Positions 6,463-64,000 are shown, numbered from the stretch's first letter. The stretch is 64,000 nucleotides of DNA from Candidatus Omnitrophota bacterium (GCA_028865345.1 JAGWKL010000009.1:7382-71381); one strand, 5' to 3'. Made by a program: numbers and translations. Notes: generated by a model from the letters alone, not told the origin.

Positions 6463-6477
6463 TATTTTAAGCCTCTT

Positions 6478-6692
6478 TTGAATTTTGAATGGGTGCTTAC
6501 GGGTATTGATGAGCGGGTGGCGGCGAGCTGGTGTTGTCGAGCGCACGCTGCCTGTTCCGTACAGCGCATCAGGGAAACCACTTTTCAATACGGCTATTGG
6601 ACCCGCACCCATCAAAGGAGCACGACAATACCAGCGAGTCGCCAGGACCCGCCTAGATTAAGCATAGTTATCCATTCAAAATTCAATGGATC
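6478..6692. other. Structured GC-rich intergenic element bounded by perfect 15-bp inverted repeats; candidate ncRNA or MITE-like element
   Basis: TTGAATTTTGAATGG at 6478-6492 is the exact reverse complement of 6673-6687. The interior also has long-range complementarity: GCGGGT/ACCCGC, GCTGGTG/CACCAGC, CGCTG/CAGCG. Confidence 0.4.
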
Positions 6693-6780
6693 CTATTTTA
6701 AGATATTTTTCCCAAACCCTTTCTTTTTGGCGGTCTTTTTGTTATCCTTATAGAAGAGGCCCTGAATCGGCCTAAAGCCT

Positions 6781-7122
6781 ATGTTCAATCCCATGAGAAA
6801 TAATGAGCAGCGCAGCCAACCGCGTGTCACCCTGGAGTTGCCCGTTACCGTCAGCATCGGATCGCAGCTGAGCGTCAAAGGCCAGCTTAAAGACCTTGCC
6901 GTCAACAGCGCCTTCATCAAGATCAAAAACAGCATTTATTTGAATGTTAACGATGAGATAGGGCTGGCCATTTCAGATTTGCCGGATGATCCTGATGCGC
7001 AGATCCAGGTGACCGCCCGGATCTCCCGTATCGTGCCGGGGGAGGGTTTTGCCGTTTATTTTACCGGAGTAGATGAAGAATCCTTAAAGTACATCAAGAA
7101 ATTCCTTCCCAAAGATCAATAA
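6781..7122 (+). CDS. PilZ domain protein (c-di-GMP binding candidate)
   Basis: An RxxxR motif (QRSQPRV) is followed by a D/NxSxxG-like segment and a beta-barrel-like C-terminus, in a single 113-aa domain. Confidence 0.6.
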   Translation: MFNPMRNNEQRSQPRVTLELPVTVSIGSQLSVKGQLKDLAVNSAFIKIKNSIYLNVNDEIGLAISDLPDDPDAQIQVTARISRIVPGEGFAVYFTGVDEESLKYIKKFLPKDQ

Positions 7123-7143
7123 TCAGGACAGCCGTTCATCACC

Positions 7144-8376
7144 ATGCACAAACGCATTTCAATCATCGGCGGGGGAATATCGGGCCTGGCTGTTTTGCAT
7201 TATTTGAAACAGCGCTTCGGGGACGATGCCGATATCTCTCTTTTTGAGAAAGAAGCGTCCGCCGGCGGCACAGTCCGCAGCCTGAAAAAAGATTCCTTCC
7301 TCTTTGAATGGGGGCCTGACGGGTTTTTGGACAATCAACCCGTTACGTTGGAGCTTATCGCGCAACTGGGTCTGGAAGACCGGCTCATCGGGGCCAGGCC
7401 TGAGGCCGCCACGCGTTATATTCAAATCGAGGGAAGATTATATCCTGTCCCCTTGGACCCTGTTGGTTTGATGCGTTCGCGGTTATTGTCCTCCCATGAT
7501 AAATGGTCCTTGATCAAAGGCCTGTTCAAAAGAAATATTTCCACCGACGTCTCCATCTATGATTATGTCAGCCGGCGCTTTTCTTGCGGGATCGCCGAGG
7601 CCCTGGTCGATCCTTTCATCAGCGGGATTTATGCCGGGGACATCCGGCGGCTGCATATGTCCGCTTTTCCTAAATTCAAAGGCCGGAAGTTCAAAAAGAG
7701 CCGCATGTGTTCTTTTAAAGGGGGCATGGGAGAGATCATCGAAGCCCTGGCTGACCGTTATAAAAATTGTATTCAAACAAGCTCGCCCGTAGCATCAATC
7801 CCGCCCGATATGGACATTACGGTTGTGGCGACACCTGCTTACGCCGCGGCCAGGATCGTTAAAAACGTCAATCCTGACCTGGCCCAAATCCTTGGCCTTT
7901 TCCCCTATGCGCCGGTGGCGGTGGCGGGCCTGGCCTTTAAACGCGATTCTTTCAAAAAAATTCCTGACGGCTTCGGATACCTGGTCCCTTCCAAGGAGCA
8001 TAAAGAGATTTTGGGAGTGCTCATCGAAAGCAATGTATATTCCCATCGGGCGCCGGAGGGCCATGTGATGCTGCGTGTCATTCTGGGAGGCATGCATCAT
8101 CCCCAGACCATCAACGACGCGCAAGAGAGGGTCCTTGTCAAAGCAGTCAAAGAGATCGATTCTGTTTATGGGCTGGTTTCCAATCCCATTGAAGGTTTTG
8201 TCAAATTTTGGCCCCAGGCCATCCCGCAATACGAAATAAATTATCCGCAAAACAGGCGCTCCATTGCCCTGGAATGCGCCAAAACGCCGGGACTGCATTT
8301 ATGCGCCAATTATTTGGACGGTATTTCCTTCAACGACTGCATTGCCGCTGCCAGGTCACTGGCGCTTGCTATATAG
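7144..8376 (+). CDS. hemY: HemY-family FAD-dependent protoporphyrinogen/coproporphyrinogen III oxidase
   Basis: The N-terminus is ISIIGGGISGLA. It also has SGIYAGD, WPQAIPQY and a C-terminal LDGISFNDC, all collinear with B. subtilis HemY. Confidence 0.75.
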   Translation: MHKRISIIGGGISGLAVLHYLKQRFGDDADISLFEKEASAGGTVRSLKKDSFLFEWGPDGFLDNQPVTLELIAQLGLEDRLIGARPEAATRYIQIEGRLYPVPLDPVGLMRSRLLSSHDKWSLIKGLFKRNISTDVSIYDYVSRRFSCGIAEALVDPFISGIYAGDIRRLHMSAFPKFKGRKFKKSRMCSFKGGMGEIIEALADRYKNCIQTSSPVASIPPDMDITVVATPAYAAARIVKNVNPDLAQILGLFPYAPVAVAGLAFKRDSFKKIPDGFGYLVPSKEHKEILGVLIESNVYSHRAPEGHVMLRVILGGMHHPQTINDAQERVLVKAVKEIDSVYGLVSNPIEGFVKFWPQAIPQYEINYPQNRRSIALECAKTPGLHLCANYLDGISFNDCIAAARSLALAI

Positions 8377-8400: not shown

Positions 8401-9564
8401 ATGATCTCTCCTTCAGAAGCGCACAGGCTTATCTTGAATGCGGCCAGACTTTTTCCTGTAGAAACAATTCCTTTGACAAAAGCGGTGGGACGCGTTTTGC
8501 GTGAAGACATTAAAAGCGACCGCGACCAGCCGCCTTTCAGCAAAAGCCTGATGGACGGCATTGCAGTTTCTTATGAAGCCTGGATAAAAGGGCAAAGAAA
8601 ATTCAATATCGAAGCCGTGGTCGCGGCAGGGGTGTCGCCCAAGCCTTTAAAAAAGCCTTCAGGCTGTGTGCGCATCATGACCGGGGCCGTTGTTCCCAAA
8701 GGCTGTGACTGTGTTGTCCCGGTGGAGCAGGTCCAGGTGGATGAAAATTTCGCCCTGTGCAAAGACTGGACCATGATCAAAAAACACCAATTCATCCGCT
8801 CCCAGGCTTCCGACGGTAAAAAAGGGGACATTCTGCTTAAATCCGGCAGGCGGCTTTGGGCGCCTCATATCGGCATTGCCGCCGGTGTCGGAAAATCCAG
8901 GATCAAGGTCAGCCGCCTGCCGGCCATTGCGGTTGTGGCCACAGGGGATGAGCTGGTGGACATCCATCGCCTTGTCAAGCCATACCAGACCCGCCTTTCC
9001 AATTCCTACGCGCTGCAAGCCTTGCTGGACCAGGCCCAGTTGGGAGAGGTAAAAATTTTCCACCTGCGCGACAATGAAAAGCTCATGCGGCAGGGCATCA
9101 AGGATATTTTAGGCAAATTCGATTGCATGATTTTAAGCGGGGGAGTGTCCATGGGAGAATTTGATTATGTCCCCCGTGTCCTGGAGCAGTTGGGGATCAA
9201 ACAATCCTTTCATAAGGTTTCCCAGAAACCCGGCAAACCTTTCTGGTTCGGGGTCTCCAAAAACGGCAAGGCCATTTTCGCCCTGCCGGGCAATCCGGTC
9301 TCCACCCAAATTTGCGCCTACCGCTATGTCATCCCGTATTTAAAAAAGACCGTGGGGCTCGAGGTCAAACAGGAATTCATTTCCGTCCTGGACAAAGTCA
9401 ACATCCAATCCGACCTGACGCATTTTTTGCCGGTGGCCCAGGGGCATTTAGTCGCGATCAGCGGGTCCGGTGATTTTGCGGCCCTGGGAGAGGCCGACGG
9501 GTTTATTGAATATGAAAGCTACAAATCACAAACTCTTTGGCCTTATTTTAGCTGGCGGGTATAG
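8401..9564 (+). CDS. moeA: Molybdopterin molybdenumtransferase
   Basis: The MoeA N-terminal domain is present (LMDGIAV), along with an MoCF-binding region (LSGGVSMGEFD). Confidence 0.9.
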   Translation: MISPSEAHRLILNAARLFPVETIPLTKAVGRVLREDIKSDRDQPPFSKSLMDGIAVSYEAWIKGQRKFNIEAVVAAGVSPKPLKKPSGCVRIMTGAVVPKGCDCVVPVEQVQVDENFALCKDWTMIKKHQFIRSQASDGKKGDILLKSGRRLWAPHIGIAAGVGKSRIKVSRLPAIAVVATGDELVDIHRLVKPYQTRLSNSYALQALLDQAQLGEVKIFHLRDNEKLMRQGIKDILGKFDCMILSGGVSMGEFDYVPRVLEQLGIKQSFHKVSQKPGKPFWFGVSKNGKAIFALPGNPVSTQICAYRYVIPYLKKTVGLEVKQEFISVLDKVNIQSDLTHFLPVAQGHLVAISGSGDFAALGEADGFIEYESYKSQTLWPYFSWRV

Positions 9565-10117
9565 CACGCGCATGGGGCGGGACAAGGCCCTGCTTTCCTT
9601 TCACGGCAAACCTCAGGTGGAATACGTTGGCGGCCTCCTGCAACAATTCTGCAAAAAAGTTTTCCTGTCGAAAAGGGCCGACCAGCCGCCGTACAAGGCC
9701 TTTGACTCCATCGATGATGCTCCTGAATTTTCCGGCCAGGGCCCTTTAAGCGGGATTTTATCTGCCATGAAGGAATACCGGGGCCATGACTGGCTGGTTA
9801 TGGCCTGTGATCTGCCCCTGGCGGGCGAGGAAGCGGTCCGAACGCTTCTCGCCGGCCGGGACCGCAGCAAAACAGCCACGGCTTTTATCAGCACCCATGA
9901 CCAATTGCCTGAACCTTTATGCGCCGTTTGGGAAGGGCATGCCTACGCCGCCATCTTAAAATCATTCAACGAAGGCATTCATTGCCCGCGCAAAATCCTG
10001 CTCAAAAGCGATGCCGCTTTGGTCAGCCAAACAAATCCGCATTGGCTGGACAACATCAACACCCTTAAAGAGTACGAAGCATTAATAAAGACCGCGCCGT
10101 TTGTTTTTTCCCGTTAA
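9512..10117 (+). CDS. mobA: Molybdenum cofactor guanylyltransferase
   Basis: LILAGGYSTRMGRDKALL is the MobA signature. The start was chosen at the internal ATG of MKATNHKLFGL. The track ORF begins at 9470. Confidence 0.85.
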   Translation: MKATNHKLFGLILAGGYSTRMGRDKALLSFHGKPQVEYVGGLLQQFCKKVFLSKRADQPPYKAFDSIDDAPEFSGQGPLSGILSAMKEYRGHDWLVMACDLPLAGEEAVRTLLAGRDRSKTATAFISTHDQLPEPLCAVWEGHAYAAILKSFNEGIHCPRKILLKSDAALVSQTNPHWLDNINTLKEYEALIKTAPFVFSR

Positions 10118-47085: not shown

Positions 47086-48300
47086 TCATGGCTTAACGCA
47101 GCTAGTCAGCTCCTTCGCCCATTGTTTTCCTTTCGTATTTAATAAGTTTTCCATACCTTTTAATCTGTCTTGAGTCCTTTCTTTTAGAGATAGTTCTTTA
47201 ATCAAGGTAAGATGTCTTTTTAAGAATGCTATAACTAAATTTAAGCTTCCCTTTTCCTTTGAAATTATGTTTCCCAATCGTTCACCATTGTAGTCAAAGC
47301 AACTAAAAAAAGCTTGGTACTTTCTTTTGAGAAATAGCTCTTTTTCGATAGTTACATCATCGTAAAAAAAATTGAAAATTTTTATCAAATCTGAATTTCT
47401 GAAATATCCAACCTGGTAAGCCCTTGCATCTGCAAAAGCGTAAATTGGTTGAACGCTCGTTTTAGCATAATTGGACAGGCTTTTACATATGCCTTCAATA
47501 AACAGTTTAGAGCCTGAAACAAAGCTTACGCGCCATCGATTAGATGAAAAGCTGATGCTGCCGTCACCATCAAAATATCCGCGAATAAAGTGACTATATA
47601 AAATTTCAGGTAAAACAGGAAATTTATCATCTAAGCTTTTATTAGGCGTTAACCCCAAGGCAAGCAAGTCATTAATCATGACCTTATTGCCTATAGTTAA
47701 AGTATATAACTCTTGTTTAACTTGTCTAGTAATTTTGTGCTCTGAATCCATTAAATCTCTAATTTTATATAAAATTTCCGGTTCTTTTTGACTAATGGAA
47801 AATTGATTAAGCTGGTTGCCCAAATTCCCATCTGAATAGATAAAACCAAGCACATAGGCCATTTCTGGCGTTTGCTGTTTAAAAAAAGCCTCGTTTATTG
47901 AACTGAACCCAACATTTTTGCCTTTCTTTTTTGCCTCTCCCCTTGCTGCTGATTTACTCCGTATAGCAAGGCCGTACTTTCTAAGCAATAATAGAATATA
48001 AGCCCTTGAACAATTATGAAGCTTAGCAATGTCCCCCATCGACATTTTCTGTTCACAATATAATTCCTTGAGCCGATCTTCAGTTAATTGAGAAATGATG
48101 GCGCTTTTGACCCGTTGTTTTTGAGTTGCAGAAATCTTTTTTTTAATACTCGACAAATGCTTTAGATAAGACCCATGATCATTTCTATCAAAATCCCCTG
48201 TTCCTCTGATTACAAATTTATGGTAACAGTTTCGACAATAGCCCTTGGAATGATGTGGCTTATTCTGTAAGCATCCCTTGCAAGTGGTCAAAGTTTGCAT
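47086..48300 (-). CDS. Free-standing double-motif LAGLIDADG homing-endonuclease-like protein with N-terminal Zn ribbon and HTH
   Basis: It has CKGC...CRNC, the HTH MSMGDIAKLHNCSRAYILLLLRKYGL, and LAGLIDADG motifs YVLGFIYSDGNL and IRGYFDGDGSISF about 100 aa apart. Confidence 0.6.
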   Translation of the reverse strand: MQTLTTCKGCLQNKPHHSKGYCRNCYHKFVIRGTGDFDRNDHGSYLKHLSSIKKKISATQKQRVKSAIISQLTEDRLKELYCEQKMSMGDIAKLHNCSRAYILLLLRKYGLAIRSKSAARGEAKKKGKNVGFSSINEAFFKQQTPEMAYVLGFIYSDGNLGNQLNQFSISQKEPEILYKIRDLMDSEHKITRQVKQELYTLTIGNKVMINDLLALGLTPNKSLDDKFPVLPEILYSHFIRGYFDGDGSISFSSNRWRVSFVSGSKLFIEGICKSLSNYAKTSVQPIYAFADARAYQVGYFRNSDLIKIFNFFYDDVTIEKELFLKRKYQAFFSCFDYNGERLGNIISKEKGSLNLVIAFLKRHLTLIKELSLKERTQDRLKGMENLLNTKGKQWAKELTSCVKP

Positions 48301-49167: not shown

Positions 49168-50100
49168 TCAAGAAAAGGAGGCACAAATCCCCTTCGGGGC
49201 TTTATGTCCCCTTTTCTTGTGCGGGAAATGGCTGGGCCCGTAGGGCCGTAACCAGTATTTGAGCTTGCACTTTCTTACCCGTGTACCATACCTGAAATGA
49301 TCGGCGAACTGGTGGATGAGATACCAGAACTCCTTTTCCGTCAGGTCCTGTTTCATGGCGTTGACCATCCTGGAAGTGATCACCAGTCTCTTGGGGTTGG
49401 CCGGTGTCCAGTGGTCAAAGGTCAAATACCATGGACTGTGCTCATCAAATAGATCCAGCTCCATGCCGGTGTAATAGCAGATATAACCGTACTTGCGTAT
49501 ATAGTCCCAAATGGCTTTTCTGGCCTTTAAGGGGAAACGTTCCATGACCATGCGCTTGGCGATGGTCGAACACTGCGGGCAATATTTGTGCCATCTATTG
49601 GCTGTGGGCTGGCGGCCGCAACCGGCACAACACCGCTGTCCATGAAGGAGCTTTGGCAATCTGTACCAATGTTTCAGATGCCTCTTTTTGACCTTCAGAT
49701 GTTTTCTTCTGTGATCGTCGAGTGCGATCACATAATACCTAAACTCTTTTTGGGTCATGTCCTGCTTCATGTCGTTGACGATGGCGGCACAAATGACAAT
49801 CTTGATGGGATCTCCCGGCCTCCAATGGTCAAAATCAAGATACCAGGGGCTTGTTTCATCGTCTAACTCTAAAGCGACTTTTATGTAATAATCCCTATAG
49901 TATTGGGCACGGATATATTCCCGTACGCCCTGCTGGGCCTTGGCAGGGAATCTCTTTCTATGCATCCGGCGGGTTGTTTTGAGGCAGTCCCGGCAATAGA
50001 TGGACCAGTTGGAAAAGACCTTTTTGCGGCCGCACATGCAGCAGGTTTTTAAAGGTTTTCTGGAGAGGTGGTGAGCTTTAAGGGGCATATTGACATGCAC
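49168..50100 (-). CDS. Internally duplicated Zn-ribbon protein with HNH-like DHW-P...N-MKQD motifs (two ~150-aa repeats)
   Basis: Repeat 1 has CCMCGR..YCRDC and SPWYLDFDHWRPGDP...VNDMKQDMTQKEF. Repeat 2 has CCAGCGR..YCPQC and SPWYLTFDHWTPANP...VNAMKQDLTEKEF. Confidence 0.55.
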   Translation of the reverse strand: MHVNMPLKAHHLSRKPLKTCCMCGRKKVFSNWSIYCRDCLKTTRRMHRKRFPAKAQQGVREYIRAQYYRDYYIKVALELDDETSPWYLDFDHWRPGDPIKIVICAAIVNDMKQDMTQKEFRYYVIALDDHRRKHLKVKKRHLKHWYRLPKLLHGQRCCAGCGRQPTANRWHKYCPQCSTIAKRMVMERFPLKARKAIWDYIRKYGYICYYTGMELDLFDEHSPWYLTFDHWTPANPKRLVITSRMVNAMKQDLTEKEFWYLIHQFADHFRYGTRVRKCKLKYWLRPYGPSHFPHKKRGHKAPKGICASFS

Positions 50101-50118: not shown

Positions 50119-50442
50119 CTACCTCTTAAACACAAACGCAAGAAACATGCCGGCATACAGGCAAAAAACCAACATGCAGATGAAAGAAATTTTCTTTCTT
50201 TGAGCGATCAACGAATTTAATCCCGGGTCCTTCAAAGCAAGATACTCTTCCTTGTCCTCAAAAGCTTTCATGAGAGCTTTATCCGCTTTCGAAGTGCTGG
50301 GTACCCAGGAAGGCTTATTCAGCTTTTCCCATACCGAAGGATGCTTGAATTGCAGATATTTGACAAACCTCAAATTAAAATAAACGACCAAAAAAAGGGT
50401 AATGACAAGGACAACAAACAAAATCTGCAAAAAAATGCTCAT
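50119..50442 (-). CDS. Small two-TM membrane protein, hypothetical
   Basis: It has N- and C-terminal hydrophobic helices flanking a charged core. Confidence 0.45.
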   Translation of the reverse strand: MSIFLQILFVVLVITLFLVVYFNLRFVKYLQFKHPSVWEKLNKPSWVPSTSKADKALMKAFEDKEEYLALKDPGLNSLIAQRKKISFICMLVFCLYAGMFLAFVFKR

Positions 50443-51212: not shown

Positions 51213-54200
51213 TTATTGGATAAATTTCAGAAGATTGGGAATGGGCGTAACGCCCACTATGACGCCATACAACCCCTGGGCTTTTAAAAGCATGGCCCCG
51301 AGCGCCTTATTGCTGACGATAGGGCCGAACAAGGAGCCCTGGCGTTGGAGGGTTATATTTGTAAATTTGATACCTCCCGGGTTTGCCATGGCCGCGTCGG
51401 CCCCCTTTAATGTTTGCAATTTGTTTTCGAGGTCTCTAACAAGCCCGCCGACAAACCGCCTGAGGCGGGCTTCTTTTTGCTCCACTGACAATACTTCATC
51501 ATTGTCCAAATTCATGATCCAATCATGCAAGATCCCCGATGCGCCGGAATGGGCAAACAGACCCTCCAGAAACTTTTGGAAATTGCGCCCGAGATAATAT
51601 GACAACAAGGCATTATAGCCAAACCTGTTTTCCAAACTCTTCTCCTCTGCTATAAATGCCTTGATCCCGCTGCCCTTTTCCTCAAAGACCTCCGGCACTC
51701 CAATGACGCTGAACTTGAACGATTTGACGCCGTTGCGCCCCGTATTCAATATCCCATTGATGGTTTGCTGGTCGTCCCCTAAGGCCTCAACGATCCTTTC
51801 CTGTGTATCTTTGTCCAGTTTGGCTTCTCTCTTGCGATGCTCAATGACCATTTCATATTCCTTCAGATAAGCCGCTGAAGTCAGCAAATAATAGGCGATC
51901 CGGTTTAATCGCGGCCCCAAGGCCGCGTTTTGGTAAAACTCCAAATGCTCCGGATCTTTGTTCCATAACCCGATCAATGGTTTATAGACCGTATCCAGCC
52001 ACGCATGGGAAGTGTCTTGTCTGGGCATCAGAATATTCCCCTTGCCGGGGTGGTTGAAATCCACAGGGATGCCCTGATCAGCCAGAACACCGGTCCTCCA
52101 TGTTCCTGAACCCACGTATGCCCCATTGGCTGTTCCGTCTTCTTCCCATGCCCCGTTAGCCTCGTTATCATCCGAGTCCTGGATCTCCACATCGAGCGCC
52201 GCCAAAAAAAGGATCTTCTCTTCCCGTGTGATGCTCTGGACAAACTGAAAACTTCCCGGAAAATCCTGGGGCCTCTTGTTTTTTTCATCAGCGATCTTGT
52301 TTTCCAAACTTTTCAATTCAGCCGCAAGTTTTTCGCTGGCTTCCGTATGCTGGTTGTTCCCCAATAAAACCACGTCATAACCGAGTTGAACCAACATCCA
52401 AATGTTGTCGTCCGTCAAAGCCCTTTGCCGGCCGGCCTTTTCCGGCACAAGGCGGCGGACATAGCCCAACACCGGCCTGTCCAAATCCACGTGCACAAAG
52501 CCGCCGTTGGCGGTCATGATCCCGGCCGCGTTAAGCCTTACTTTGCTTGCTCTTTTTGTCAATGCCTCCTCGCGGGCCGTCGGCCTTTCAAAATCAGCGT
52601 TCTGGGGGATCACATTTTCCTGCTGGAGCTTTTTGAATTCTTCACGGTAGACGGCCGCCATTTCTTCCGGCACCGCGCCGTTTGTCACGGCAACCAGGAC
52701 CGAATTGGGATCATTGCCCCTCATGCGGTCCGCATGGCTGTTGGCCACCGCCCCGAAGAAATCGGCCAGTCTTCCGCCTCCGCTGGTATAATCGATATAC
52801 TGGACCCCGCGCCTAAACGCATTGATATAAAAATCCTTGATCCCCATCATGTGTTTTAGAAAAACATCCACCGCCCATTTAACGTCACCGTTGCCTCCGC
52901 GGTTTAAATCGGTATGCGTGGTATATGCCCATACAATATTTTTAACCGCATCATCCGAGCCGAACCTGCTCATCGTGACCGCTTCCAACGGCCCGAATTG
53001 CCCGTCATTACCATGTACGATGGCCGGTTCCCAGGTCTGTCCCTGCTGTTCCATGGCCTGCCTTCTGTTCGTTTCCAGCCGTTTGATCAACTCGGCGCTG
53101 GCAATGTTCAAAAATGCCATGGACTCTTCTTTACTGACAGGGTTGTTTTTTGCGCTGTAGTTATAAAGCATCTTTGTATAATATGAACTGCCGTCCGCCT
53201 GGACATCGCGGATCAGATAGGTCGCGATACCGTTCTTGTCGATGCCCCTGGCCACCCTCACGTGCACCTGTTTATACCCATTTCCGTCGCTGTTACCGAT
53301 CTGGATATCAAAATCATCAAAATCATTATTCAGGTCCCTGATACCCTGATTGGGGGCCGCATAATCCAGGGGATTGCCGTTGATATCTAATTGATAGTCC
53401 GGTTCGATATAGTTGACATCCGCGCCCAGATCATGCATCCCTTTTCCATGGAATTCCATGACCGGGCCCAGGCCCCCTGTCCAGTAATGGATCTCTGCGG
53501 CCAGCATGTAGATCGCCCGCCCCTGCAAATTCGGCCTTTTGTCCGCCAGCCATGTCTTACGGTCAAAAATGCGGTTCATCAAAAAGATCTTATCGACCAA
53601 TTCCGGCTGTTTTTTGCCTTTGTACTTTTTTTGAAGGGCCTTGATCAGATCGTCTTCCTGAGCTTTGGACAACAGCGTGATCGCCTTTAATACCGGCCAT
53701 GCCGACTGCACAGGATATAACCTTTGGGATTGCACATAAGCAGAATATTTGTCAATAAAGGCATAAAGCCCTGCCCGGTTAAATTTCCCTCTCTTATTCA
53801 AAAGCCCTTTAAGCTCATCCAAAAGACCCCAAGGCCTATTGAGGTCATACCAGTTGGAATATGATTCGGCCGGGGATGGATTAAAAACGACCTGGATATC
53901 CACGTCATTTTCTGTGCCGGCAGCCATGGCCAGGTCGCCATCGGAAGCCCTGGTAAAATGCACGGGCTGATCCACAAAACCGCCCGAAAAATACTTGCGC
54001 GGTATGGGCTGGTTGGAAAAACGGTCCGTCTCTTCTTTGATAAAGTTGAAAACGCCTCTTTTATAAGAAGCCAGATAACGGTGATAGATAAGCTCCTTGT
54101 TTTTGGGGTTATTGAGGTCGATCCCCGAGACTTTATCGCGGCCGGAAAAATCTTTATTGAGGATGGACTGTTTAAAAGCCTCCTGGTACCATTGCGCCAG

Positions 54201-54356
54201 GATGAGCGAATAGAACACCTGTCTTACTCTCGCAAAATTCTTATTTTCATTCACGGCTTTTTCTACGGCAGGAAGCAGGACCTCACGTAAAACCTGTCTG
54301 GATATGTCCTTGGTCTGGGCATTGCCGGCTTGTCCATGGCTTGCATTGCCAATCAC
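51213..54356 (-). CDS. Large (1047 aa) protein with a diverged alpha-glucan phosphorylase (GT35)-like core and an N-terminal extension of about 300 aa
   Basis: TGGLGPV...GKGMHDLG resembles SGGLGVLAGDHLKSASDLG. HGNDGQ resembles H.NEGH. AYTTHT resembles AYTNHT. The C-terminal GGIKFTN resembles the PLP-Lys GNMKFMLNG. Confidence 0.4.
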   Translation of the reverse strand: MIGNASHGQAGNAQTKDISRQVLREVLLPAVEKAVNENKNFARVRQVFYSLILAQWYQEAFKQSILNKDFSGRDKVSGIDLNNPKNKELIYHRYLASYKRGVFNFIKEETDRFSNQPIPRKYFSGGFVDQPVHFTRASDGDLAMAAGTENDVDIQVVFNPSPAESYSNWYDLNRPWGLLDELKGLLNKRGKFNRAGLYAFIDKYSAYVQSQRLYPVQSAWPVLKAITLLSKAQEDDLIKALQKKYKGKKQPELVDKIFLMNRIFDRKTWLADKRPNLQGRAIYMLAAEIHYWTGGLGPVMEFHGKGMHDLGADVNYIEPDYQLDINGNPLDYAAPNQGIRDLNNDFDDFDIQIGNSDGNGYKQVHVRVARGIDKNGIATYLIRDVQADGSSYYTKMLYNYSAKNNPVSKEESMAFLNIASAELIKRLETNRRQAMEQQGQTWEPAIVHGNDGQFGPLEAVTMSRFGSDDAVKNIVWAYTTHTDLNRGGNGDVKWAVDVFLKHMMGIKDFYINAFRRGVQYIDYTSGGGRLADFFGAVANSHADRMRGNDPNSVLVAVTNGAVPEEMAAVYREEFKKLQQENVIPQNADFERPTAREEALTKRASKVRLNAAGIMTANGGFVHVDLDRPVLGYVRRLVPEKAGRQRALTDDNIWMLVQLGYDVVLLGNNQHTEASEKLAAELKSLENKIADEKNKRPQDFPGSFQFVQSITREEKILFLAALDVEIQDSDDNEANGAWEEDGTANGAYVGSGTWRTGVLADQGIPVDFNHPGKGNILMPRQDTSHAWLDTVYKPLIGLWNKDPEHLEFYQNAALGPRLNRIAYYLLTSAAYLKEYEMVIEHRKREAKLDKDTQERIVEALGDDQQTINGILNTGRNGVKSFKFSVIGVPEVFEEKGSGIKAFIAEEKSLENRFGYNALLSYYLGRNFQKFLEGLFAHSGASGILHDWIMNLDNDEVLSVEQKEARLRRFVGGLVRDLENKLQTLKGADAAMANPGGIKFTNITLQRQGSLFGPIVSNKALGAMLLKAQGLYGVIVGVTPIPNLLKFIQ

Positions 54357-55506: not shown

Positions 55507-55929
55507 TCAAAGATCAAACGATTTTAGCAATTTGGCCGTGGGGTATGTTTCTAAATGAGGGATATTTTCAAAATCTTTATCATTGGACCAAATAGGTATG
55601 CCCTTAGCAAGTGCTAAAGCTGCCAGAGGAATGTCATCCATATCTCTTTGACCAATATATGTTTTAGCCTGAGTTAATTTAGATTTATATTCATCTTCTC
55701 CAATTATCTTGACTGGCAGCATTTTAAATTGCACCCATAAAGCTTTAAGATCGATATGGTATTTTGCGCCGAGAAAAGGAAGATAATCCTCAACCTCTCC
55801 GGCATTAAACTCGGTGGTCAGGATTTCAAGGTTTGTTCGGGTAAAAACCTTCAGCGCGGCATGACCAATAACTGCAGAAAGTAAAACATTACTGTCTGCT
55901 GCGACGCTTTTTAAAGACTTTGAAGTCAT
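55507..55929 (-). CDS. vapC: PIN-domain toxin
   Basis: It has an N-terminal acidic DSNVLL and later conserved Asp residues. Its length is typical for VapC. Confidence 0.75.
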   Translation of the reverse strand: MTSKSLKSVAADSNVLLSAVIGHAALKVFTRTNLEILTTEFNAGEVEDYLPFLGAKYHIDLKALWVQFKMLPVKIIGEDEYKSKLTQAKTYIGQRDMDDIPLAALALAKGIPIWSNDKDFENIPHLETYPTAKLLKSFDL

Positions 55930-56155
55930 CTAAAATTTCTTTCTCAGTTACTTTTTTCTGACTTAATGCTGAAGCGATTCTGCCGCCCATTTGAGCCACG
56001 AATTCCTTCTTTAACTCAATAGGAAGCTTGGCAGATTCTTCTAAAGGCAGAAAACAGCCCACCATTTTGCCATGGTTGGTCACCAAAACCATTTCTCCTT
56101 CTTTGCCATACTCTGCCAGGGAACTTCTGAATTCACGAATAGAAGCTAATTTCAT
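55889..56155 (-). CDS. vapB: Antitoxin of the VapBC/Phd-YefM type
   Basis: It is an 88-aa protein immediately upstream of, and overlapping, the PIN gene. The start was taken at the internal ATG of MKLASIREF. Confidence 0.55.
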   Translation of the reverse strand: MKLASIREFRSSLAEYGKEGEMVLVTNHGKMVGCFLPLEESAKLPIELKKEFVAQMGGRIASALSQKKVTEKEILDDFKVFKKRRSRQ

Positions 56156-56250
56156 AATTTTTACCTCCCGAGCCCAACTATAGCACACAAAATAAAATGT
56201 GTCAAATATGTGTACACATTATTCTTGTGTTTAGGCTGTAGCTTGTCCTT

Positions 56251-58239: not shown

Positions 58240-59226
58240 CTATGGATTTTTCTCCATGGAAACGCCGCCTATGGCAGCGGAAGTCAGCTTAAAGAGATTC
58301 TGGATGAATTCCTCGCTATGGCCCTCCGGACGGCCGGGGCCGTTTCGGAAGGAAAGATTCAACACCCCCAAAGCATCATGCCCGACGGCCATGAGGGGCA
58401 TGACGATCGAATACTTGATTTCGGGCCGTTTGAGAAGGTGTTGGATGCGGTTATTGGGATGGGCGCTGTCGATGACCAGCGTTTTTTTCTCTTTCATGGC
58501 AAACCCCGCAAGCCCCTCTTCTTTTTTTAAAGAAGGCCTCGGCACCCACCGTTCATCCAGGCCGCGGGAAACTTTGATCATAAATTCATCGGTCCGGTCA
58601 TCAACGGTCATGATGGAACCGCTTTCGGCCTGGGTCATGAACATGGCCATGTCGAGAATGGCGGTATAAATTTCGTCCATGGGAACGGAAGCTTCTTGCA
58701 GCTTCCTGCGCTCGTAATTGGCCTGCACGGTGTATTGGGAAAGTTCAAAGAGCAATTCCAAGATCGAACGCAGGCTGGTATAGGAAAGTATGCGCACCTG
58801 GTCGATCTCACTCAGGATGTCTTCGGCAAAGCCACCCTGGGCGGCGATCAGGAACTCATATTCCGCGCGTGTAAAGCGCTTATTTAAAATGACCGGCCCC
58901 ACGACAATATAGGCCAGCGGTTTGCCGGGCTGTATCTGCACGGGGATGGCAAAACTGCTTAAGGCCAGAGGGTCCTTATATTCCAGGTATCCTTCAGGAG
59001 AGGCTGTAAACCTGTCCAAAATATTAAACGGTCCGTCCTTGGTTTCATCGGCCCTGGCAGACCTGGCGTATCTGGAGATCAGGCGCCAGCCGTAGGCATC
59101 CGTCTTCGGCGTCAATAAGATCTTTCCATTGATATCGACGATAAAGATATTGGTCTTCAGCACATCGATGAAACTGTGCACGATAGGCTTGAGCTTTTCA
59201 AATTGGATGAGTTCGTTTAAGTCCAT
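58240..59226 (-). CDS. Sensory protein with N-terminal PocR-like region and C-terminal GAF domain, no output domain
   Basis: It has GAF-like residues in the C-terminal half and lies directly downstream of the sigma-54 regulator. Confidence 0.5.
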   Translation of the reverse strand: MDLNELIQFEKLKPIVHSFIDVLKTNIFIVDINGKILLTPKTDAYGWRLISRYARSARADETKDGPFNILDRFTASPEGYLEYKDPLALSSFAIPVQIQPGKPLAYIVVGPVILNKRFTRAEYEFLIAAQGGFAEDILSEIDQVRILSYTSLRSILELLFELSQYTVQANYERRKLQEASVPMDEIYTAILDMAMFMTQAESGSIMTVDDRTDEFMIKVSRGLDERWVPRPSLKKEEGLAGFAMKEKKTLVIDSAHPNNRIQHLLKRPEIKYSIVMPLMAVGHDALGVLNLSFRNGPGRPEGHSEEFIQNLFKLTSAAIGGVSMEKNP

Positions 59227-59241
59227 GATATCAACCGTTGA

Positions 59242-60627
59242 TTATTTGAATGAGATGCCGTATTTTTTCATTTTATTGTAAAGGGTCGTCCTGTTGATGC
59301 CGAGGCTCGCCGCGGTCAGGCTGCGGTTGCCGTTCATTTCTCTTAGCTTGGTCAGGATAAGTTCTTTGGCCGGTTCTTTCAAGCCGTCCTCCAAAGACTG
59401 GTGTACGGTATTCCTTTCCTTACGCTCTGCGGCGTTGAAGGTCACAGGGAGGTCCCGCTTGTTGATGCAATGGGTCTGGGCCATGATCACGGAGCCTTCG
59501 ATCACGTTTTCCAGCTGCCTGATATTGCCGGGCCAGCGGTATTCCATAAAGAGTTTTTTGACCTCGTCAGAAATGCCTTTGACATTTTTATTATTTTTCT
59601 CATTGGAGACCCGGATAAAATGTTCCACCAATAAATTGATATCATCTTTTCTCTGCCTCAAAGGGGCGATGGCAATGGGGATGACATGGATGCGGTAATA
59701 CAAGTCTTCCCTGAATTTCCCCTCTTCCACCAGCTTTTCAAGGTCTTGATTAGTGGCCACGATCACCCGGGCGTCGGTCTTGCGCGTCTGGGTGTCCCCC
59801 ACGCGTTCGTATCCGCCGTCCTGCAATACCCTCAAGAGCTTCACCTGGAGTTCCTGCGAGCAGGTGTCGATTTCATCCAGGAAAATGGTGGCGCCGTCGG
59901 CCAGCTCGAAACGGCCGGCCTTGTCGCGGATGGCGCCTGTAAAAGCGCCCTTCACGTGGCCGAACAACTCGCTTTCCAAAAGCGTTTCAGAAAGGGCGCC
60001 GCAACTGACCTCCACAAAAGGCTTGGCCCTGCGGTTCTGGTCGTGCTGGTGGATGGCGCGGGCGACCAGGCCTTTGCCGGTGCCGCTTTCGCCTGAGATC
60101 ATAATGGTGGCATTGGTCGAAGCCACGGACTCGATAAGCCGGTAGACCTGCTGCATGGCTTCGCTTTGTCCGACGATCCCGTAAAATGTGGACCGTTTTT
60201 TCATTTCCACCATGGCCCTCAGCTCGATGTTTTCCCTCAGGAGCTCTTTTTTTTCGATGATCCTGGCGATGATCAGCTTGATCTCTTCGTCATGGATGGG
60301 CTTGGTGACATAATCAAAAGCATGCTGCTTCATCGCGGAGACGGCCGACTCAATGGTCCCGTAGCCGGTGATCACAATGACCTCGGTGGCCGGAAAATTC
60401 TTTTTAATAAAGCCCAGCAGGTCGATGCCGTCGGCATCGGCAAGCTTGAGGTCGGTGATAACGATGTCAAAAAGGGTTTTGCGGACAAGCTCCTTGGCTT
60501 CCTGCATGGCGGAAGCCATCTGCACCCGGAAGCCTTCGATCTTGAGGATCTCATAAAGCGATTTGCGGATGAGAGGCTCGTCATCAACGATCAAAATATG
60601 GTAATTTTTATAGCGTTCGTCCATCAT
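59242..60627 (-). CDS. Sigma-54-dependent response regulator (NtrC family)
   Basis: It has REC (ILIVDDEPLIR), AAA+ Walker A GESGTGKG, GAFTGA, and a C-terminal Fis-type HTH. Confidence 0.9.
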   Translation of the reverse strand: MMDERYKNYHILIVDDEPLIRKSLYEILKIEGFRVQMASAMQEAKELVRKTLFDIVITDLKLADADGIDLLGFIKKNFPATEVIVITGYGTIESAVSAMKQHAFDYVTKPIHDEEIKLIIARIIEKKELLRENIELRAMVEMKKRSTFYGIVGQSEAMQQVYRLIESVASTNATIMISGESGTGKGLVARAIHQHDQNRRAKPFVEVSCGALSETLLESELFGHVKGAFTGAIRDKAGRFELADGATIFLDEIDTCSQELQVKLLRVLQDGGYERVGDTQTRKTDARVIVATNQDLEKLVEEGKFREDLYYRIHVIPIAIAPLRQRKDDINLLVEHFIRVSNEKNNKNVKGISDEVKKLFMEYRWPGNIRQLENVIEGSVIMAQTHCINKRDLPVTFNAAERKERNTVHQSLEDGLKEPAKELILTKLREMNGNRSLTAASLGINRTTLYNKMKKYGISFK

Positions 60628-61853
60628 GAATGCCCTGCCGGTAAAAAGACAGTAAACACCGTACCCTTTGAAGGCGCGCTTTCAATTTCTATTTTTCCGT
60701 CATACAAGCGGACGATCTCACTGACAATGGTCAGGCCCAGGCCGCAGCCTTCTTCCATGCCTTTGGTTGTGAAAAACGGCTCAAAGATCTTTTCAATGTT
60801 CTGCTTTGGGATACCTTTGCCCGAATCCGAGACCTGGATCTTGACCATGTCCCCTTCCATGGCGGTCAAGATCGCGATGGTACCTTCCCGGTCGATCGCG
60901 TCGGCGGCGTTGCGGATGATATTGGAAACGACCCTTTCCAGGCCGCGATCATCCAAGGGGGCCAGTCCTTCCTGCAGGCGACGCGTCACAGTGATGTTTT
61001 TATGAGCAAAATCCCCTCTTAATTCCTTCAGGCACTGCTCCACGCAGTTATTGACATCCACCAGGCCTGCTGTTGATGTGTTGCGCGCGCAGGCCAGAAG
61101 GCTTTTGACGATGTTGGCCATGCGTCTCAGGCCCTGGCGGGCCTCCAGAAGATATTCGCGGACAACCTCATTGTCTTCATCCAGGTGTTCAAGGGAAAGG
61201 TTCGTGTAACGCATGACGCCGTCTAAGGGATTGTTGAATTCATGGGCAATGCCGCCGGCAAGTTTGCCAAGCGACGCCAGACGCTCATGCAGGACAACTT
61301 CTTTCTTCAGGCGGGCAGCTTCCTGGTTGGTACGTCCCAGCTGGCTGTTGAGCATAAGGCGCTCAAAGTTCAAAGCGATCTGGCTGGAGAGAAAATCCAG
61401 GACCTTCAATTCGTTCTTATTGAACTTCTGATGCGTGGTCTTGTCGGAGATGTTGATGACGCCGATCAGCCTGTCCTTGATCAGAAGCGGCGCGCAGATG
61501 AACGAAGGCGAGCGGTAGCTCCTGCGGGGCTTGAGGTCGCCGAAGCGCTTGTCCCGGCCGATATCGTCGACCAATACCGGCATTTTGAGCTGGGCCACAT
61601 GCCCGACAATGCCCTCTCCCATGCGCTTGACCAAGAGCATCTGCTCATCCGTCTTCAGGCCCCTGGAAACCTGCAGGACAAGCTTGTCGCCTGCATCCAG
61701 AAGAAAAATAGAGCCGCGCGTGGCCCGCATTAGCTCAAGAATATCATTCAGAGCGCCTTCCAGAAGATCGTTGACATTATCTGCAACGAGCGCGGCCGCG
61801 CATACCCCATTGATCCTTGCCAGGATGCTTTGTTGTTTCACCGCAAGCACCAT
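60624..61853 (-). CDS. Cytoplasmic GAF-domain sensor histidine kinase
   Basis: It has an N-terminal GAF, an H-box HEFNNPL, and HATPase N/G boxes (DSGKGIP, GLGL). Confidence 0.85.
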   Translation of the reverse strand: MVLAVKQQSILARINGVCAAALVADNVNDLLEGALNDILELMRATRGSIFLLDAGDKLVLQVSRGLKTDEQMLLVKRMGEGIVGHVAQLKMPVLVDDIGRDKRFGDLKPRRSYRSPSFICAPLLIKDRLIGVINISDKTTHQKFNKNELKVLDFLSSQIALNFERLMLNSQLGRTNQEAARLKKEVVLHERLASLGKLAGGIAHEFNNPLDGVMRYTNLSLEHLDEDNEVVREYLLEARQGLRRMANIVKSLLACARNTSTAGLVDVNNCVEQCLKELRGDFAHKNITVTRRLQEGLAPLDDRGLERVVSNIIRNAADAIDREGTIAILTAMEGDMVKIQVSDSGKGIPKQNIEKIFEPFFTTKGMEEGCGLGLTIVSEIVRLYDGKIEIESAPSKGTVFTVFLPAGHS

Positions 61854-61865
61854 AATTCCTTCTGC

Positions 61866-62756
61866 CTATTTCCCCTCTTGCCGCGGAGTGATCTTCACAT
61901 GATTGGTTTTGAGCCTGGTAATATTGACCACCATGCCTTTGAACAATCCAATCATCGGATGTTGAGGGTATTTCTTCATGAACTCTTTGTAAATCTCAAC
62001 GGGCAAATCATAATTCTTCATGTGGACGATGGCCGCCACATTAATGACATAAATCGCTTCCCGCAGGCTTCTTTCGTCCGCGTCCGCCATCAACATTTCC
62101 CGGCAATACTTCACGACCTGGGGCCAATCCTGCCTGGCAAGGTCCGCGGAAACCATCAGCTTCAAGGCGGCGGTACGGATCTCTTTATCACGAGAATGTT
62201 CTAAGACATTTTTGTATTGGGTAATGGCGCGGCCAAAAGCCTCTGATTTATCTGCAGGATCGTTTTGGGCCTGGCGGCTGGCGATATATAAAGGAAGTTT
62301 TAAACCGACTACGGTTGTAGGATAAAGCCGGATGGTCTTTTGATACTGCTCCTGCGCCTGGGGCCAGTCCTTTTGCACTTCGTAGGTTTCTCCAATGGCT
62401 GCCATGGCCTCGGCAATATGCTGCGGATCATGGGGAAAGGCCGCCGGGATTTCGGCATAAACCTTGCGTGCCGCATCATAATTTTTTCTGACCAGATCGA
62501 CCTTAGCTATCCACATATACGCCTGGGGGACAAGAGGCGAATGAGAATAGGCCTTGATAAAATCCCTATAACGCCGGATGATCTGCTCAAACGTAAAGTC
62601 CGGAACAGCTTCCGGTTCCTGCTCCAATAGATTCATCTGTTGGTTGATATGCCACAAGCTGCGTTCGGCAGAGTACTCCCCTTTGAAGTCCAGAAGACTC
62701 AGGAGAACATAAACCGCAACCAGGACGATCAAAAGTCTGATGATAAGTTTCTTCAT
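61866..62756 (-). CDS. TPR-repeat protein with N-terminal membrane anchor (PrsT-like)
   Basis: It has multiple TPR-like helices. The start was chosen at MKKLIIRLLIVL, so the ATG overlaps the upstream gene's stop. Confidence 0.6.
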   Translation of the reverse strand: MKKLIIRLLIVLVAVYVLLSLLDFKGEYSAERSLWHINQQMNLLEQEPEAVPDFTFEQIIRRYRDFIKAYSHSPLVPQAYMWIAKVDLVRKNYDAARKVYAEIPAAFPHDPQHIAEAMAAIGETYEVQKDWPQAQEQYQKTIRLYPTTVVGLKLPLYIASRQAQNDPADKSEAFGRAITQYKNVLEHSRDKEIRTAALKLMVSADLARQDWPQVVKYCREMLMADADERSLREAIYVINVAAIVHMKNYDLPVEIYKEFMKKYPQHPMIGLFKGMVVNITRLKTNHVKITPRQEGK

Positions 62757-63640
62757 GCCGAAGGTCTCGCCGGATTTTCCTTGGTATACAAATAATAGGT
62801 GGTCACCGCCGCTGCGATGATGCAATCCACCAGGGTGGCGCAAATAGTGCTGACTACAAGGACGACCAGTTCAATTTCAGGAAAGGTTACGGTCATCAAA
62901 GCCGGAATTTTGTCACGCGCAAGCAGGACCGGTAAATAGAAAAGTGTGGGCACAAGCACAACAACGATCGTAAACCAAAACGACTGCCAAAAGAACTTCA
63001 ATCCCAGTCCTATCGCAGGGAATATCTTCTTTTTTTCAAGAACGATAATGGGAATGACATAAATCAAAACCGCTGTGATCAAAATCCCCACCAGAAACTG
63101 CACATAGAGACCGCTGCCAAGAATTGCATGTTTGATAAAACCATGCACCCCGCCCTTGGCTTGGATTTTTGCTGCCCAAATATACAAATTGTTATAACTC
63201 TTGGCAAAGGCGAAAAACAAGAAAAAAGAAAGGAAGGAGGCCAAAAGAACATGGATATAGGAAGGCCAACAGTCCTTCCATGCTTCTTTAACGGACATTT
63301 TTTTGTCGTTGTTGAAAGCGCCTATGAGCCGGATGGAAACAGCCAAAAGAAAGCCTCCGGCAAACAAATAAATGACCACCTGGGCGTAATAGAATAATTT
63401 AGGCAAAAGAAGGAAATTATAGGGATAGTGCAGAAATTCCGGGCCCCAGAGACGGCTGATCAAGGGGGCAAAAAAAACGGACAATGGCGGACGGGGAGCG
63501 AAATAGAAAATTTCAAGGGCCAACAATTGAAAGAAGACACTGATGACTAAGGGATAGAAAATTATGGGATGTTGGAACAGGATTGAAATCGAAGAGTTCA
63601 GGACAGCAAACGGCTTAGGGCGCAAGGATTTCGACGTCAT
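62753..63640 (-). CDS. Polytopic membrane protein, hypothetical
   Basis: It is 295 aa with about 8 TM helices and lies between the PEP-CTERM gene and the TPR gene. Confidence 0.5.
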   Translation of the reverse strand: MTSKSLRPKPFAVLNSSISILFQHPIIFYPLVISVFFQLLALEIFYFAPRPPLSVFFAPLISRLWGPEFLHYPYNFLLLPKLFYYAQVVIYLFAGGFLLAVSIRLIGAFNNDKKMSVKEAWKDCWPSYIHVLLASFLSFFLFFAFAKSYNNLYIWAAKIQAKGGVHGFIKHAILGSGLYVQFLVGILITAVLIYVIPIIVLEKKKIFPAIGLGLKFFWQSFWFTIVVVLVPTLFYLPVLLARDKIPALMTVTFPEIELVVLVVSTICATLVDCIIAAAVTTYYLYTKENPARPSA

Positions 63641-63787
63641 GAGTATTAATGTATCTCTTTATTATGTAATTAGTTATGAATAATAATATCACAATTTCAA
63701 AGATCAGTCCAGGTTAAAGAAACAATATGTTAAAAAAGCAGACATTGATGGTCTGCTTTTTTATACTGGTAATAAATGTCAAAACAA

Positions 63788-64000
63788 CTATTTCAAACAG
63801 GGCTTTACTGCTTTTGTGCGAAAATACATCACTATGATAAACATGCCCACAGCCAAAAGAAGAAGTGAAGTCGGTTCAGGATCATGAACAGAAGCAAGGG
63901 TCCCTCCTGTCGGATCCACACCTCCCGGAGGCGGGACAGTAACAACTGTGCCCGAGCCGCCGGTAAGTCCGCTGGTTAATCCAGAAGACGAACCTGAACC
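63788..64000 (-). CDS. C-terminal end of a PEP-CTERM protein-sorting-domain protein (5' end lies outside the window)
   Basis: Translation ends ...GTLASVHDPEPTSLLLLAVGMFIIVMYFRTKAVKPCLK. This is a classic PEP motif plus TM plus basic tail. Confidence 0.65.
   Translation of the reverse strand, partial: GSGSSSGLTSGLTGGSGTVVTVPPPGGVDPTGGTLASVHDPEPTSLLLLAVGMFIIVMYFRTKAVKPCLK

Follow-up and report, generated by a model that had tools for sequence, protein, structure and literature searches.

Regulation of exosortase/PEP-CTERM protein-sorting systems has been described for the PrsK/PrsR/PrsT proteins, which Haft et al. reported in 2006 together with a sigma-54 motif in front of PEP-CTERM genes, in Proteobacteria only, while the regulators of other exosortase/PEP-CTERM systems were left to be found (PMC1569441). 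Transcription of the PEP-CTERM gene pepA has since been found to depend on RpoN in Aquincola (PMC9850573). Here, we analyze 64,000 nucleotides (nt) of a Candidatus Omnitrophota bacterium (GCA_028865345.1 JAGWKL010000009.1:7382-71381; this whole stretch is called "the window" below), of which positions 58240-64000 carry a cassette of five genes encoding a membrane protein, a TPR protein, a histidine kinase, an NtrC-type sigma-54 activator, and a PocR+GAF protein next to the end of a PEP-CTERM gene. An initial annotation had read this region as a Prs-like module with a variant signaling input. We hold with moderate confidence that the cassette is specific to Omnitrophota and switches on the neighboring PEP-CTERM operon via a sigma-54 promoter, which would make it a functional analogue of Prs outside the PrsK/PrsR/PrsT family.

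Like PrsK/PrsR/PrsT, the cassette encodes a kinase, an NtrC-type sigma-54 activator, and a TPR protein beside exosortase and exopolysaccharide genes, and a -24/-12 promoter with a conserved upstream site precedes the PEP-CTERM genes in both cases. The architecture of its regulator (receiver, AAA+, and Fis-type helix-turn-helix [HTH]) is identical to that of PrsR. In contrast, PrsK is a polytopic membrane kinase whereas the cassette kinase is a soluble protein that carries GAF at its N terminus, and PrsT is a lipoprotein of ca. 900 amino acids (aa) whereas the cassette TPR protein is anchored by a transmembrane span and has 296 aa. Unlike Prs, the cassette also comprises two extra conserved partners, a membrane protein with weak fold likeness to CysZ and the PocR+GAF protein. 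Finally, the predicted sigma-54 promoter stands before an operon of several genes, the first of them for a phosphoglycosyl transferase, instead of before single PEP-CTERM genes, and the host belongs to the phylum Omnitrophota and not to the Proteobacteria.

Three other groups of known proteins invite comparison. The AtoS/AtoC and ZraS/ZraR pairs share the design of a HisKA/HATPase kinase with an NtrC-type regulator, and AtoC (422.7 bits) and AtoS (185.2 bits) are indeed the top-scoring models, though far under their equivalog cut-offs (714 and 646), and the genomic context and inferred regulon of these systems are unrelated to those of the cassette. Sensors of the AtoS/ZraS type are membrane/PAS or periplasmic sensors, unlike the soluble GAF domain of the cassette kinase. 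The PocR domain encoded by the last gene is common to PocR-AraC one-component regulators (PF10114), but it is fused here to GAF and lacks a DNA-binding domain, so this protein cannot be a one-component regulator. A similar fold with two small-molecule-binding domains is predicted for the PocR+GAF protein and for the tandem GAF or PAS-GAF modules of cyclases, phosphodiesterases, and phytochromes (PDB 1ykd, 1mc0); these modules are covalently joined to an enzymatic output, whereas the PocR+GAF protein stops after its second sensor domain. In the literature that we searched, no paper ties PocR to exosortase or Omnitrophota to PEP-CTERM regulation, and the main genomics paper on Omnitrophota is silent on exosortase, sigma-54, and exopolysaccharide.

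A five-gene cassette next to PEP-CTERM genes

The region contains the following features:

58240-59226, minus strand: PocR+GAF protein, 328 aa, two sensor domains without an output domain
59242-60627, minus strand: NtrC-type sigma-54 enhancer-binding response regulator, 461 aa, with receiver, Sigma54_activat, AAA_lid_14, and C-terminal HTH_8 domains
60624-61853, minus strand: soluble sensor histidine kinase, 409 aa, with GAF (28-161), HisKA, and HATPase_c domains
61866-62756, minus strand: TPR protein, 296 aa, anchored by one N-terminal transmembrane span, with YbgF/CpoB-like repeats
62753-63640, minus strand: polytopic membrane protein ("Mem"), 295 aa, ca. six hydrophobic spans, family uncharacterized
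63683..63711, minus strand: sigma-70-type promoter-like site of the cassette, TGGACT-17-TATTAT, with an extended -10 TG
63731..63763, minus strand: intrinsic-terminator-like hairpin closing the PEP-CTERM operon, 13 pairs and a T-run
63789..64000, minus strand: small PEP-CTERM gene, 3' end only, predicted to be last in the sigma-54-driven target operon

All five minus-strand open reading frames (ORFs) of the initial annotation are present, in the gene order and with the domain content described there. Its NtrC-type sigma-54 regulator was confirmed by the receiver, AAA+, lid, and HTH_8 domains, its soluble GAF kinase by the GAF domain and the lack of any hydrophobic span, and the extra GAF sensor appended to the module corresponds to the PocR+GAF protein without output domain. 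By hydropathy, the kinase, regulator, and PocR+GAF protein all have zero hydrophobic spans, and the membrane protein has ca. six instead of the eight transmembrane spans proposed initially. The 4-nt overlaps that had been noted occur at the kinase/regulator and membrane/TPR junctions, the latter coupling the TPR gene translationally to the membrane gene, whereas 12 and 15 nt separate the genes at the other two junctions.

The PEP-CTERM gene indeed adjoins the cassette, but the terminator hairpin and the sigma-70-like site between them make the two separate transcription units. Hairpin and T-run are also found 5' of the cassette in many other loci, and the promoter-like site, which shows 9/12 consensus matches in the window, corresponds in most orthologous loci to a far better sequence at the equivalent place (TTGACA-N17-TAgAAT). 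We therefore predict that the five genes are one operon under their own sigma-70-type promoter, which lies just past the terminator hairpin of the PEP-CTERM operon. Autoregulation of the cassette was considered and rejected, as the sequence 5' of the membrane gene has this sigma-70-type promoter and lacks the TGTC repeats, the palindrome, and the sigma-54 site that are described below. No Rfam element was found across the locus at E<=1.

Both proteins of the kinase/regulator pair retain the motifs expected of their families. The kinase has an intact H-box with its histidine (His204). The regulator (Response_reg 93.2, Sigma54_activat 229.3, AAA_lid_14 95.3, and HTH_8 39.0 bits) has intact motifs throughout, with the receiver Asp59 as presumed phospho-acceptor, a Walker A motif at residue 179, GAFTGA at residue 227, and DEID at residue 251. 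In the PocR+GAF protein, the PocR domain (residues 5-171) scores 50.1 bits against a Pfam gathering cut-off of 23.9 and GAF_2 scores 38.8 bits. Its AlphaFold2 model (predicted local distance difference test score [pLDDT] 82) consists of two alpha/beta domains with a long helix between them and looks like a tandem-GAF or PAS-GAF regulatory module that lost its output. Without an output domain, this protein would have to work through protein-protein contact with the kinase or the activator. Ca. 75 full-length relatives were found; all of those with a source name are from Omnitrophota, and the majority carry no source name.

An exosortase locus and a predicted sigma-54 promoter beyond the window

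The window ends within the PEP-CTERM gene, and the sequence beyond comes from close relatives. Its membrane protein is identical on three public Candidatus Omnitrophota contigs from metagenome-assembled genomes, and the window is a strain-level variant with ca. 30 mismatches to one of them, L001, in the first 7.6 kb (ca. 99.6% identical); the nearest is L003. In L001 (126 kb) and the likewise near-identical L002, the genes past the window are, in order, those for an 858-aa protein, an exosortase, EpsI, a phosphoglycosyl transferase of the Bac_transf type after a gap of 255 nt, and four PEP-CTERM proteins. The main features in L001 are:

4681-5514: exosortase, TIGR02602 181.2 bits (cut-off 105.55)
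5530-6165: EpsI, TIGR02914 103.8 bits (cut-off 42.8), a gene separate from that of the exosortase
6420-7274: Bac_transf phosphoglycosyl transferase, TIGR03025 308.4 bits (cut-off 295.55), ca. 3 kb past window position 64000
9548-9853: small PEP-CTERM protein, full gene, 101 aa

An exosortase that the initial annotation had expected beyond the window end is thus found with EpsI in L001 and L002, ca. 4-5 kb past position 64000. Exosortase, EpsI, and PEP-CTERM genes occur together at this locus, with PEP-CTERM models at or above cut-off for 2/4 of the neighboring proteins. Since the exosortase passes the generic model TIGR02602 but fails every type-specific one (XrtA 174 vs 208, XrtD 181.1 vs 400, XrtW 175.2 vs 425, XrtV 141.7 vs 313, and XrtB 124.6 vs 275), it is probably an untyped Omnitrophota subtype.

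The partial gene at the window edge was correctly recognized as a PEP-CTERM gene, as its product ends in ...VHDPEPTSLLLLAVGMFIIVMYFRTKAVKPCLK*, where a P-E-P motif precedes a hydrophobic span and a basic cluster (the tail of this ORF was also read as ...HDPEPTSLLLLAVGMFIIVMYFRTK...). The full-length copy in L001 falls narrowly under the Pfam PEP-CTERM cut-off (18.9 vs 20.7 bits) and has a lipobox (LSGC), a Gly/Ser-rich linker, and an HDPEP-TM-basic tail. Orthologues in 9 loci have 90-130 aa with a Gly/Ser-rich low-complexity stretch and keep both the lipobox L[SVY]GC and the canonical [IVL]H[ND]PEP tail, so that the small protein holds two different membrane-anchoring or sorting signals. The 90-nt gap between the third and fourth PEP-CTERM genes of L001 contains, at positions 9484-9529, an inverted repeat that is long and perfect (CCGGCATGGTT...AACCATGCCGG) and encloses an inner ACAGCT/AGCTGT pair. 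It has neither a T-run nor an Rfam match and may serve in RNA processing or stability.

The phosphoglycosyl transferase itself has a conserved N-terminal extension composed of a signal peptide (..AWA), a linker of ca. 35 aa, and a canonical PEP-CTERM signal of the form S[HR]APEP[ST]TxALFGSGxFGMxxSFxR[RK], immediately followed by a KRxFD helix and the catalytic domain. This extension with its internal PEP-CTERM signal is present in 16/17 loci (orthologues in L004-L028), and 5/6 of the N-termini tested pass the TIGR02595 cut-off; the L001 copy fails it. A search with a 117-aa fragment of the N-terminus gave one match and is uninformative on distribution. We found no paper describing a phosphoglycosyl transferase that bears a PEP-CTERM signal, and the sequence implies that exosortase would dock to or cleave this priming enzyme.

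The GG-N10-GC element sought by the initial annotation ahead of PEP-CTERM genes is found in front of their operon: in the gap between epsI and the transferase gene, positions 6349-6363 of L001 hold a perfect sigma-54 element (TGGCACGGAACTTGCT; TGGCAC-N5-TTGC) 56 nt before the in-frame Bac_transf ATG. We collected 31 loci, mapped their genes by tblastn, and scanned 29 of them (ca. 450 kb, both strands) for TGGCACG-N4-TTGCW with GG and GC fixed and at least 11/12 matching positions. All such matches have the coding-strand orientation and fall within the epsI/Bac_transf gap, except in L019, where the match immediately precedes a PEP-CTERM gene; the rest of the scanned sequence has none. At a threshold of 10/12, the site is present in 16/17 epsI/Bac_transf gaps. 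Within the window itself, TGGCAC-N5-TTGC shows no enrichment when up to 2 mismatches are allowed (61 matches vs 77.7 expected), and an exact match at 49579-49593 and a site at 50138-50152 were dismissed as chance hits, both being within ORFs.

Further motifs stand at fixed distances upstream of the sigma-54 element. Direct repeats of TGTCMTRG occur in 2-4 copies with an exact 10-nt period from -132 to -92, and a palindrome, CAACATGTT(G/T), lies near -160 with a second CAACA ca. 20 nt downstream. Between -220 and -80, TGTC-N6-TGTC is ca. 400-fold enriched (12/18 loci) and CAACA-N0-4-TGTT ca. 74-fold (10/18 loci). The CAACATGTTG-type palindrome at ca. -160 and the TGTCMTRG repeats are candidate binding sites of the activator. 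A coding-strand intergenic -24/-12 element, position-fixed upstream motifs, and a nearby gene for an enhancer-binding protein together argue for a sigma-54 promoter at this place.

Conservation across Omnitrophota

The same five-gene order occurs in more than 20 species-level Omnitrophota genomes with membrane protein identities of 30-62%, so the arrangement is not a product of chance. The order that is kept runs from exosortase and EpsI over the sigma-54 promoter to the transferase, the PEP-CTERM gene(s), and the genes for the membrane protein, TPR protein, kinase, regulator, and PocR+GAF protein. In 18 of ca. 23 distinct cassette loci, the cassette adjoins sigma-54-driven PEP-CTERM genes; the five exceptions are L015, L023, L029, L030, and L012, whose contig starts only with the gene for the membrane protein. 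The cassette is intact without an adjacent exosortase in L019, L023, and L029-L031, which marks it as a conserved unit. In L019 and in L031, which was fetched after the 29-locus scan and shows the same arrangement, the small PEP-CTERM gene is the sole gene between sigma-54 promoter and cassette. At all five loci, a gene for a protein of ca. 900-990 aa takes the place of the exosortase upstream of the cassette; in the two that were scanned (L030 1582-4290 and L031 1085-3868), it encodes AMP-binding, PP-binding, and acyltransferase domains (Aas-like), which hints at a link to lipid modification.

Loci with other regulatory genes serve as natural controls. In a distant clade (L007 1128-5693 and L008 8596-13149), genes for a Glycos_transf_4 protein, a PocR-AraC protein, and a PilZ-like protein precede those for the membrane protein, a TPR lipoprotein, exosortase, EpsI, and PEP-CTERM/CBM_4_9 proteins. 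The membrane protein is 24-26% and the TPR protein 25% identical to those of the cassette, the PocR domains show marginal similarity (E 0.023), and the pair lies directly upstream of exosortase-EpsI without the kinase/regulator pair. The PilZ-like domain suggests that cyclic di-GMP is an input at these loci. In L020 and L021, the membrane, TPR, and PocR+GAF proteins are encoded as a trio alone beside sugar-nucleotide genes. No sigma-54 site was found at any of these four loci, where the membrane/TPR pair is present and the kinase and regulator are absent. The sigma-54 promoter therefore tracks the kinase/regulator pair, and the membrane/TPR pair tracks a PocR-domain protein. As this pair occurs with PocR-AraC beside exosortase and, in L020 and L021, with PocR-GAF alone, PocR looks like a recurrent input, and the pair may belong to the machinery instead of being a sensor. 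In L013 (10867-13146), the regulator gene directly follows the TPR gene and tblastn finds no kinase gene between them; the kinase may have been lost or relocated.

These contrasts bear on whether the kinase/regulator pair might control other genes while another enhancer-binding protein serves the PEP-CTERM promoter, their adjacency being coincidence or shared inheritance. The regulator does come from a large paralogous family (it matches 121 NCBIfam models), and the cassettes of L023, L029, and L030 adjoin neither a sigma-54 site nor a PEP-CTERM gene. We nonetheless consider this improbable, as the adjacency is maintained in most cassette loci despite divergence of the membrane protein to ca. 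30% identity, the sigma-54 site is gone exactly where PocR-AraC replaces kinase and regulator, and promoter and small PEP-CTERM gene abut the cassette in L019 and L031 even without an adjacent exosortase.

Relationship to the Prs system

The initial annotation is supported in part: the locus has a Prs-like logic, with an exosortase/PEP-CTERM context and a predicted sigma-54 promoter, but the proteins miss the cut-offs of all three Prs models. The regulator scores 389.2 bits with TIGR02915 (PrsR; cut-off 502.6), lower than with AtoC and comparable to NtrC (395.5 bits); the TPR protein reaches 19.9 bits with TIGR02917 (PrsT; cut-off 312); and the kinase, for which AtoS is the best NCBIfam match, reaches 95.9 bits with TIGR02916 (PrsK; cut-off 300) over profile positions 415-679 only. 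These scores, the soluble kinase, and the short TPR protein that is not a lipoprotein indicate that the cassette proteins are not members of PrsK/PrsR/PrsT.

Could the module still be a true but strongly diverged orthologue of Prs? Its regulator aligns end to end with TIGR02915 (E 2.5e-116), and, as in Prs, the genes for a TPR protein, a kinase, and a sigma-54 regulator adjoin PEP-CTERM genes that have a -24/-12 promoter. Moreover, 6/17 loci have a TGTAA element (TTACA when read on the opposite strand) 61-63 nt before the -24 element that faintly recalls PrsR motif 1, a 17-nt sequence, in a comparison by the 3' end (TTTACA) and the spacing of ca. 63 nt from the sigma-54 motif only (PMC1569441); the most strongly conserved motifs of the loci, the TGTC repeats and CAACATGTTG, are others and stand farther upstream. 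Against these similarities stand the scores, with AtoC and NtrC matching the regulator equally well or better, the lack of a membrane domain in the kinase, a TPR protein of one third of the length of PrsT whose N-terminal hydrophobic span has no lipobox cysteine, and the confinement of PrsK/PrsR/PrsT and their DNA motif to Proteobacteria (PMC1569441). Nor is there support for the idea that the membrane protein is a detached N-terminal domain of a split PrsK, as it has no TIGR02916 match at E<=0.01. Orthologous membership in Prs thus seems very improbable to us.

The membrane/TPR pair

Besides missing TIGR02916, the membrane protein matches no other Pfam or NCBIfam family (NCBIfam at E<=0.01). 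Its AlphaFold2 model (pLDDT 92.9) resembles CysZ and CTL1/PNS1 weakly and not significantly (TM 0.5-0.6, E above 0.1), and its family comprises 859 representatives at E<=1e-3. The TPR protein scores 61.8 bits with TIGR02795 (cut-off 90.1), and its homologue beside the exosortase in L007 matches over the full length with an E value of 1e-20. One cluster representative of the membrane-protein family, P0222 (643 aa), is the sole fusion seen and joins a Glycos_transf_4 domain of the WecA/MraY type (residues 81-239) to the membrane-protein domain (369-642), a possible Rosetta-stone link of the membrane protein to the priming step of glycan synthesis. A phosphoglycosyl transferase of the same enzyme class is encoded two genes upstream of the membrane/TPR pair in L007 and L008.

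These observations raise the possibility that only the kinase, the regulator, and the PocR+GAF protein are regulatory and that the membrane/TPR pair is a co-transcribed accessory of exosortase or polysaccharide synthesis, acting, e.g., with the priming glycosyltransferase or lipid-linked intermediates. We take this alternative seriously, though we lean against it. The direct proximity of the pair to exosortase-EpsI in L007 and L008, with PocR-AraC and PilZ-like proteins replacing kinase and regulator, its place beside sugar-nucleotide genes in L020 and L021, the P0222 fusion, and the likeness to the transporter-like CysZ and CTL1 would all fit such a role. However, every examined locus that has the pair and is long enough also encodes a PocR-domain protein, and the pair stays with kinase and regulator in L019, L023, and L029-L031 where no exosortase is adjacent. 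Moreover, the fusion was seen in one cluster representative, and the fold matches are not significant.

A further and rather doubtful idea is that membrane, TPR, and PocR-domain proteins are an unrecognized three-part unit that couples exosortase sorting to polysaccharide priming by monitoring the phosphoglycosyl transferase or its lipid-linked product. If so, the outputs of this unit would be interchangeable (GAF kinase and sigma-54 activator in one case, AraC HTH and PilZ-like protein in the other), and the phosphoglycosyl transferase with its PEP-CTERM signal would be a client of the exosortase.

Other features of the window

Elsewhere in the window, a region of lower G+C content (0.41-0.45) includes a 404-aa ORF (47086-48300, minus strand) with two LAGLIDADG-like motifs (YVLGFIYSDGNL, FIRGYFDGDGSI) that suggest a homing-endonuclease-type protein, and a neighboring 310-aa ORF (49168-50100, minus strand) with an internally duplicated Cys-rich module ending in FDHW(R/T)P. 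A VapBC-like pair at 55507-56188 (minus strand) consists of a PIN-domain toxin (140 aa) and an upstream 99-aa partner, and a very large protein containing Glyco_transf_5 is encoded downstream of this pair (51213-54356, minus strand; 1270 aa as called in L001).

Proposed mechanism and implications

We propose that the sigma-70 operon would constitutively supply the soluble GAF kinase and the NtrC-type activator, that the kinase would phosphorylate the receiver domain of the activator, and that the phosphorylated activator would bind the conserved upstream sites and open the sigma-54 promoter between epsI and the next operon. The products would be the PEP-CTERM-anchored phosphoglycosyl transferase followed by PEP-CTERM proteins, with the small lipoprotein last. 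Signal input would be cytoplasmic through the GAF domain of the kinase and through the PocR+GAF protein, which may tune kinase or activator by direct contact, and the membrane/TPR pair would either relay envelope status or be co-transcribed exosortase/polysaccharide machinery. The variant signaling input of the initial annotation is present in its parts, the soluble GAF kinase and the PocR+GAF protein, while their signaling role is what we infer.

Several points weigh against this proposal. Exosortase and sigma-54 promoter lie outside the window and were seen only in its strain-level relatives; the target of the activator among the conserved upstream motifs is a candidate only; and a regular-expression search for an RpoN box in the collected locus sequence had no match, which is uninformative given the few kb available per genome. 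Three cassettes, as mentioned, have neither a PEP-CTERM gene nor a sigma-54 site next to them, and L013 apparently has no kinase gene. The presence of the membrane/TPR pair beside exosortase even with an AraC-type regulator and the single fusion of the membrane domain to a priming glycosyltransferase argue against a purely sensory role of this pair. Finally, all genomes are metagenome-assembled from uncultured organisms, and the case is wholly computational.

If the cassette acts as we propose, it would offer a candidate answer to how exosortase/PEP-CTERM systems are regulated outside Proteobacteria, and for a whole candidate phylum, at a locus with a predicted sigma-54 promoter, sites that may act as enhancers, and a putative cognate activator. 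A cytoplasmic GAF/PocR input would take the place of the membrane kinase PrsK, and sigma-54 control of PEP-CTERM genes would have been either re-invented or rewired with different sensors. Two uncharacterized conserved partners, the CysZ-like membrane protein and the short TPR protein, track exosortase across clades, and the PEP-CTERM signal on the priming glycosyltransferase hints at a physical tie of protein sorting to the initiation of polysaccharide synthesis. As Omnitrophota have not been cultured, are often ultra-small, and may depend on hosts, control of their surface layer may bear on attachment.

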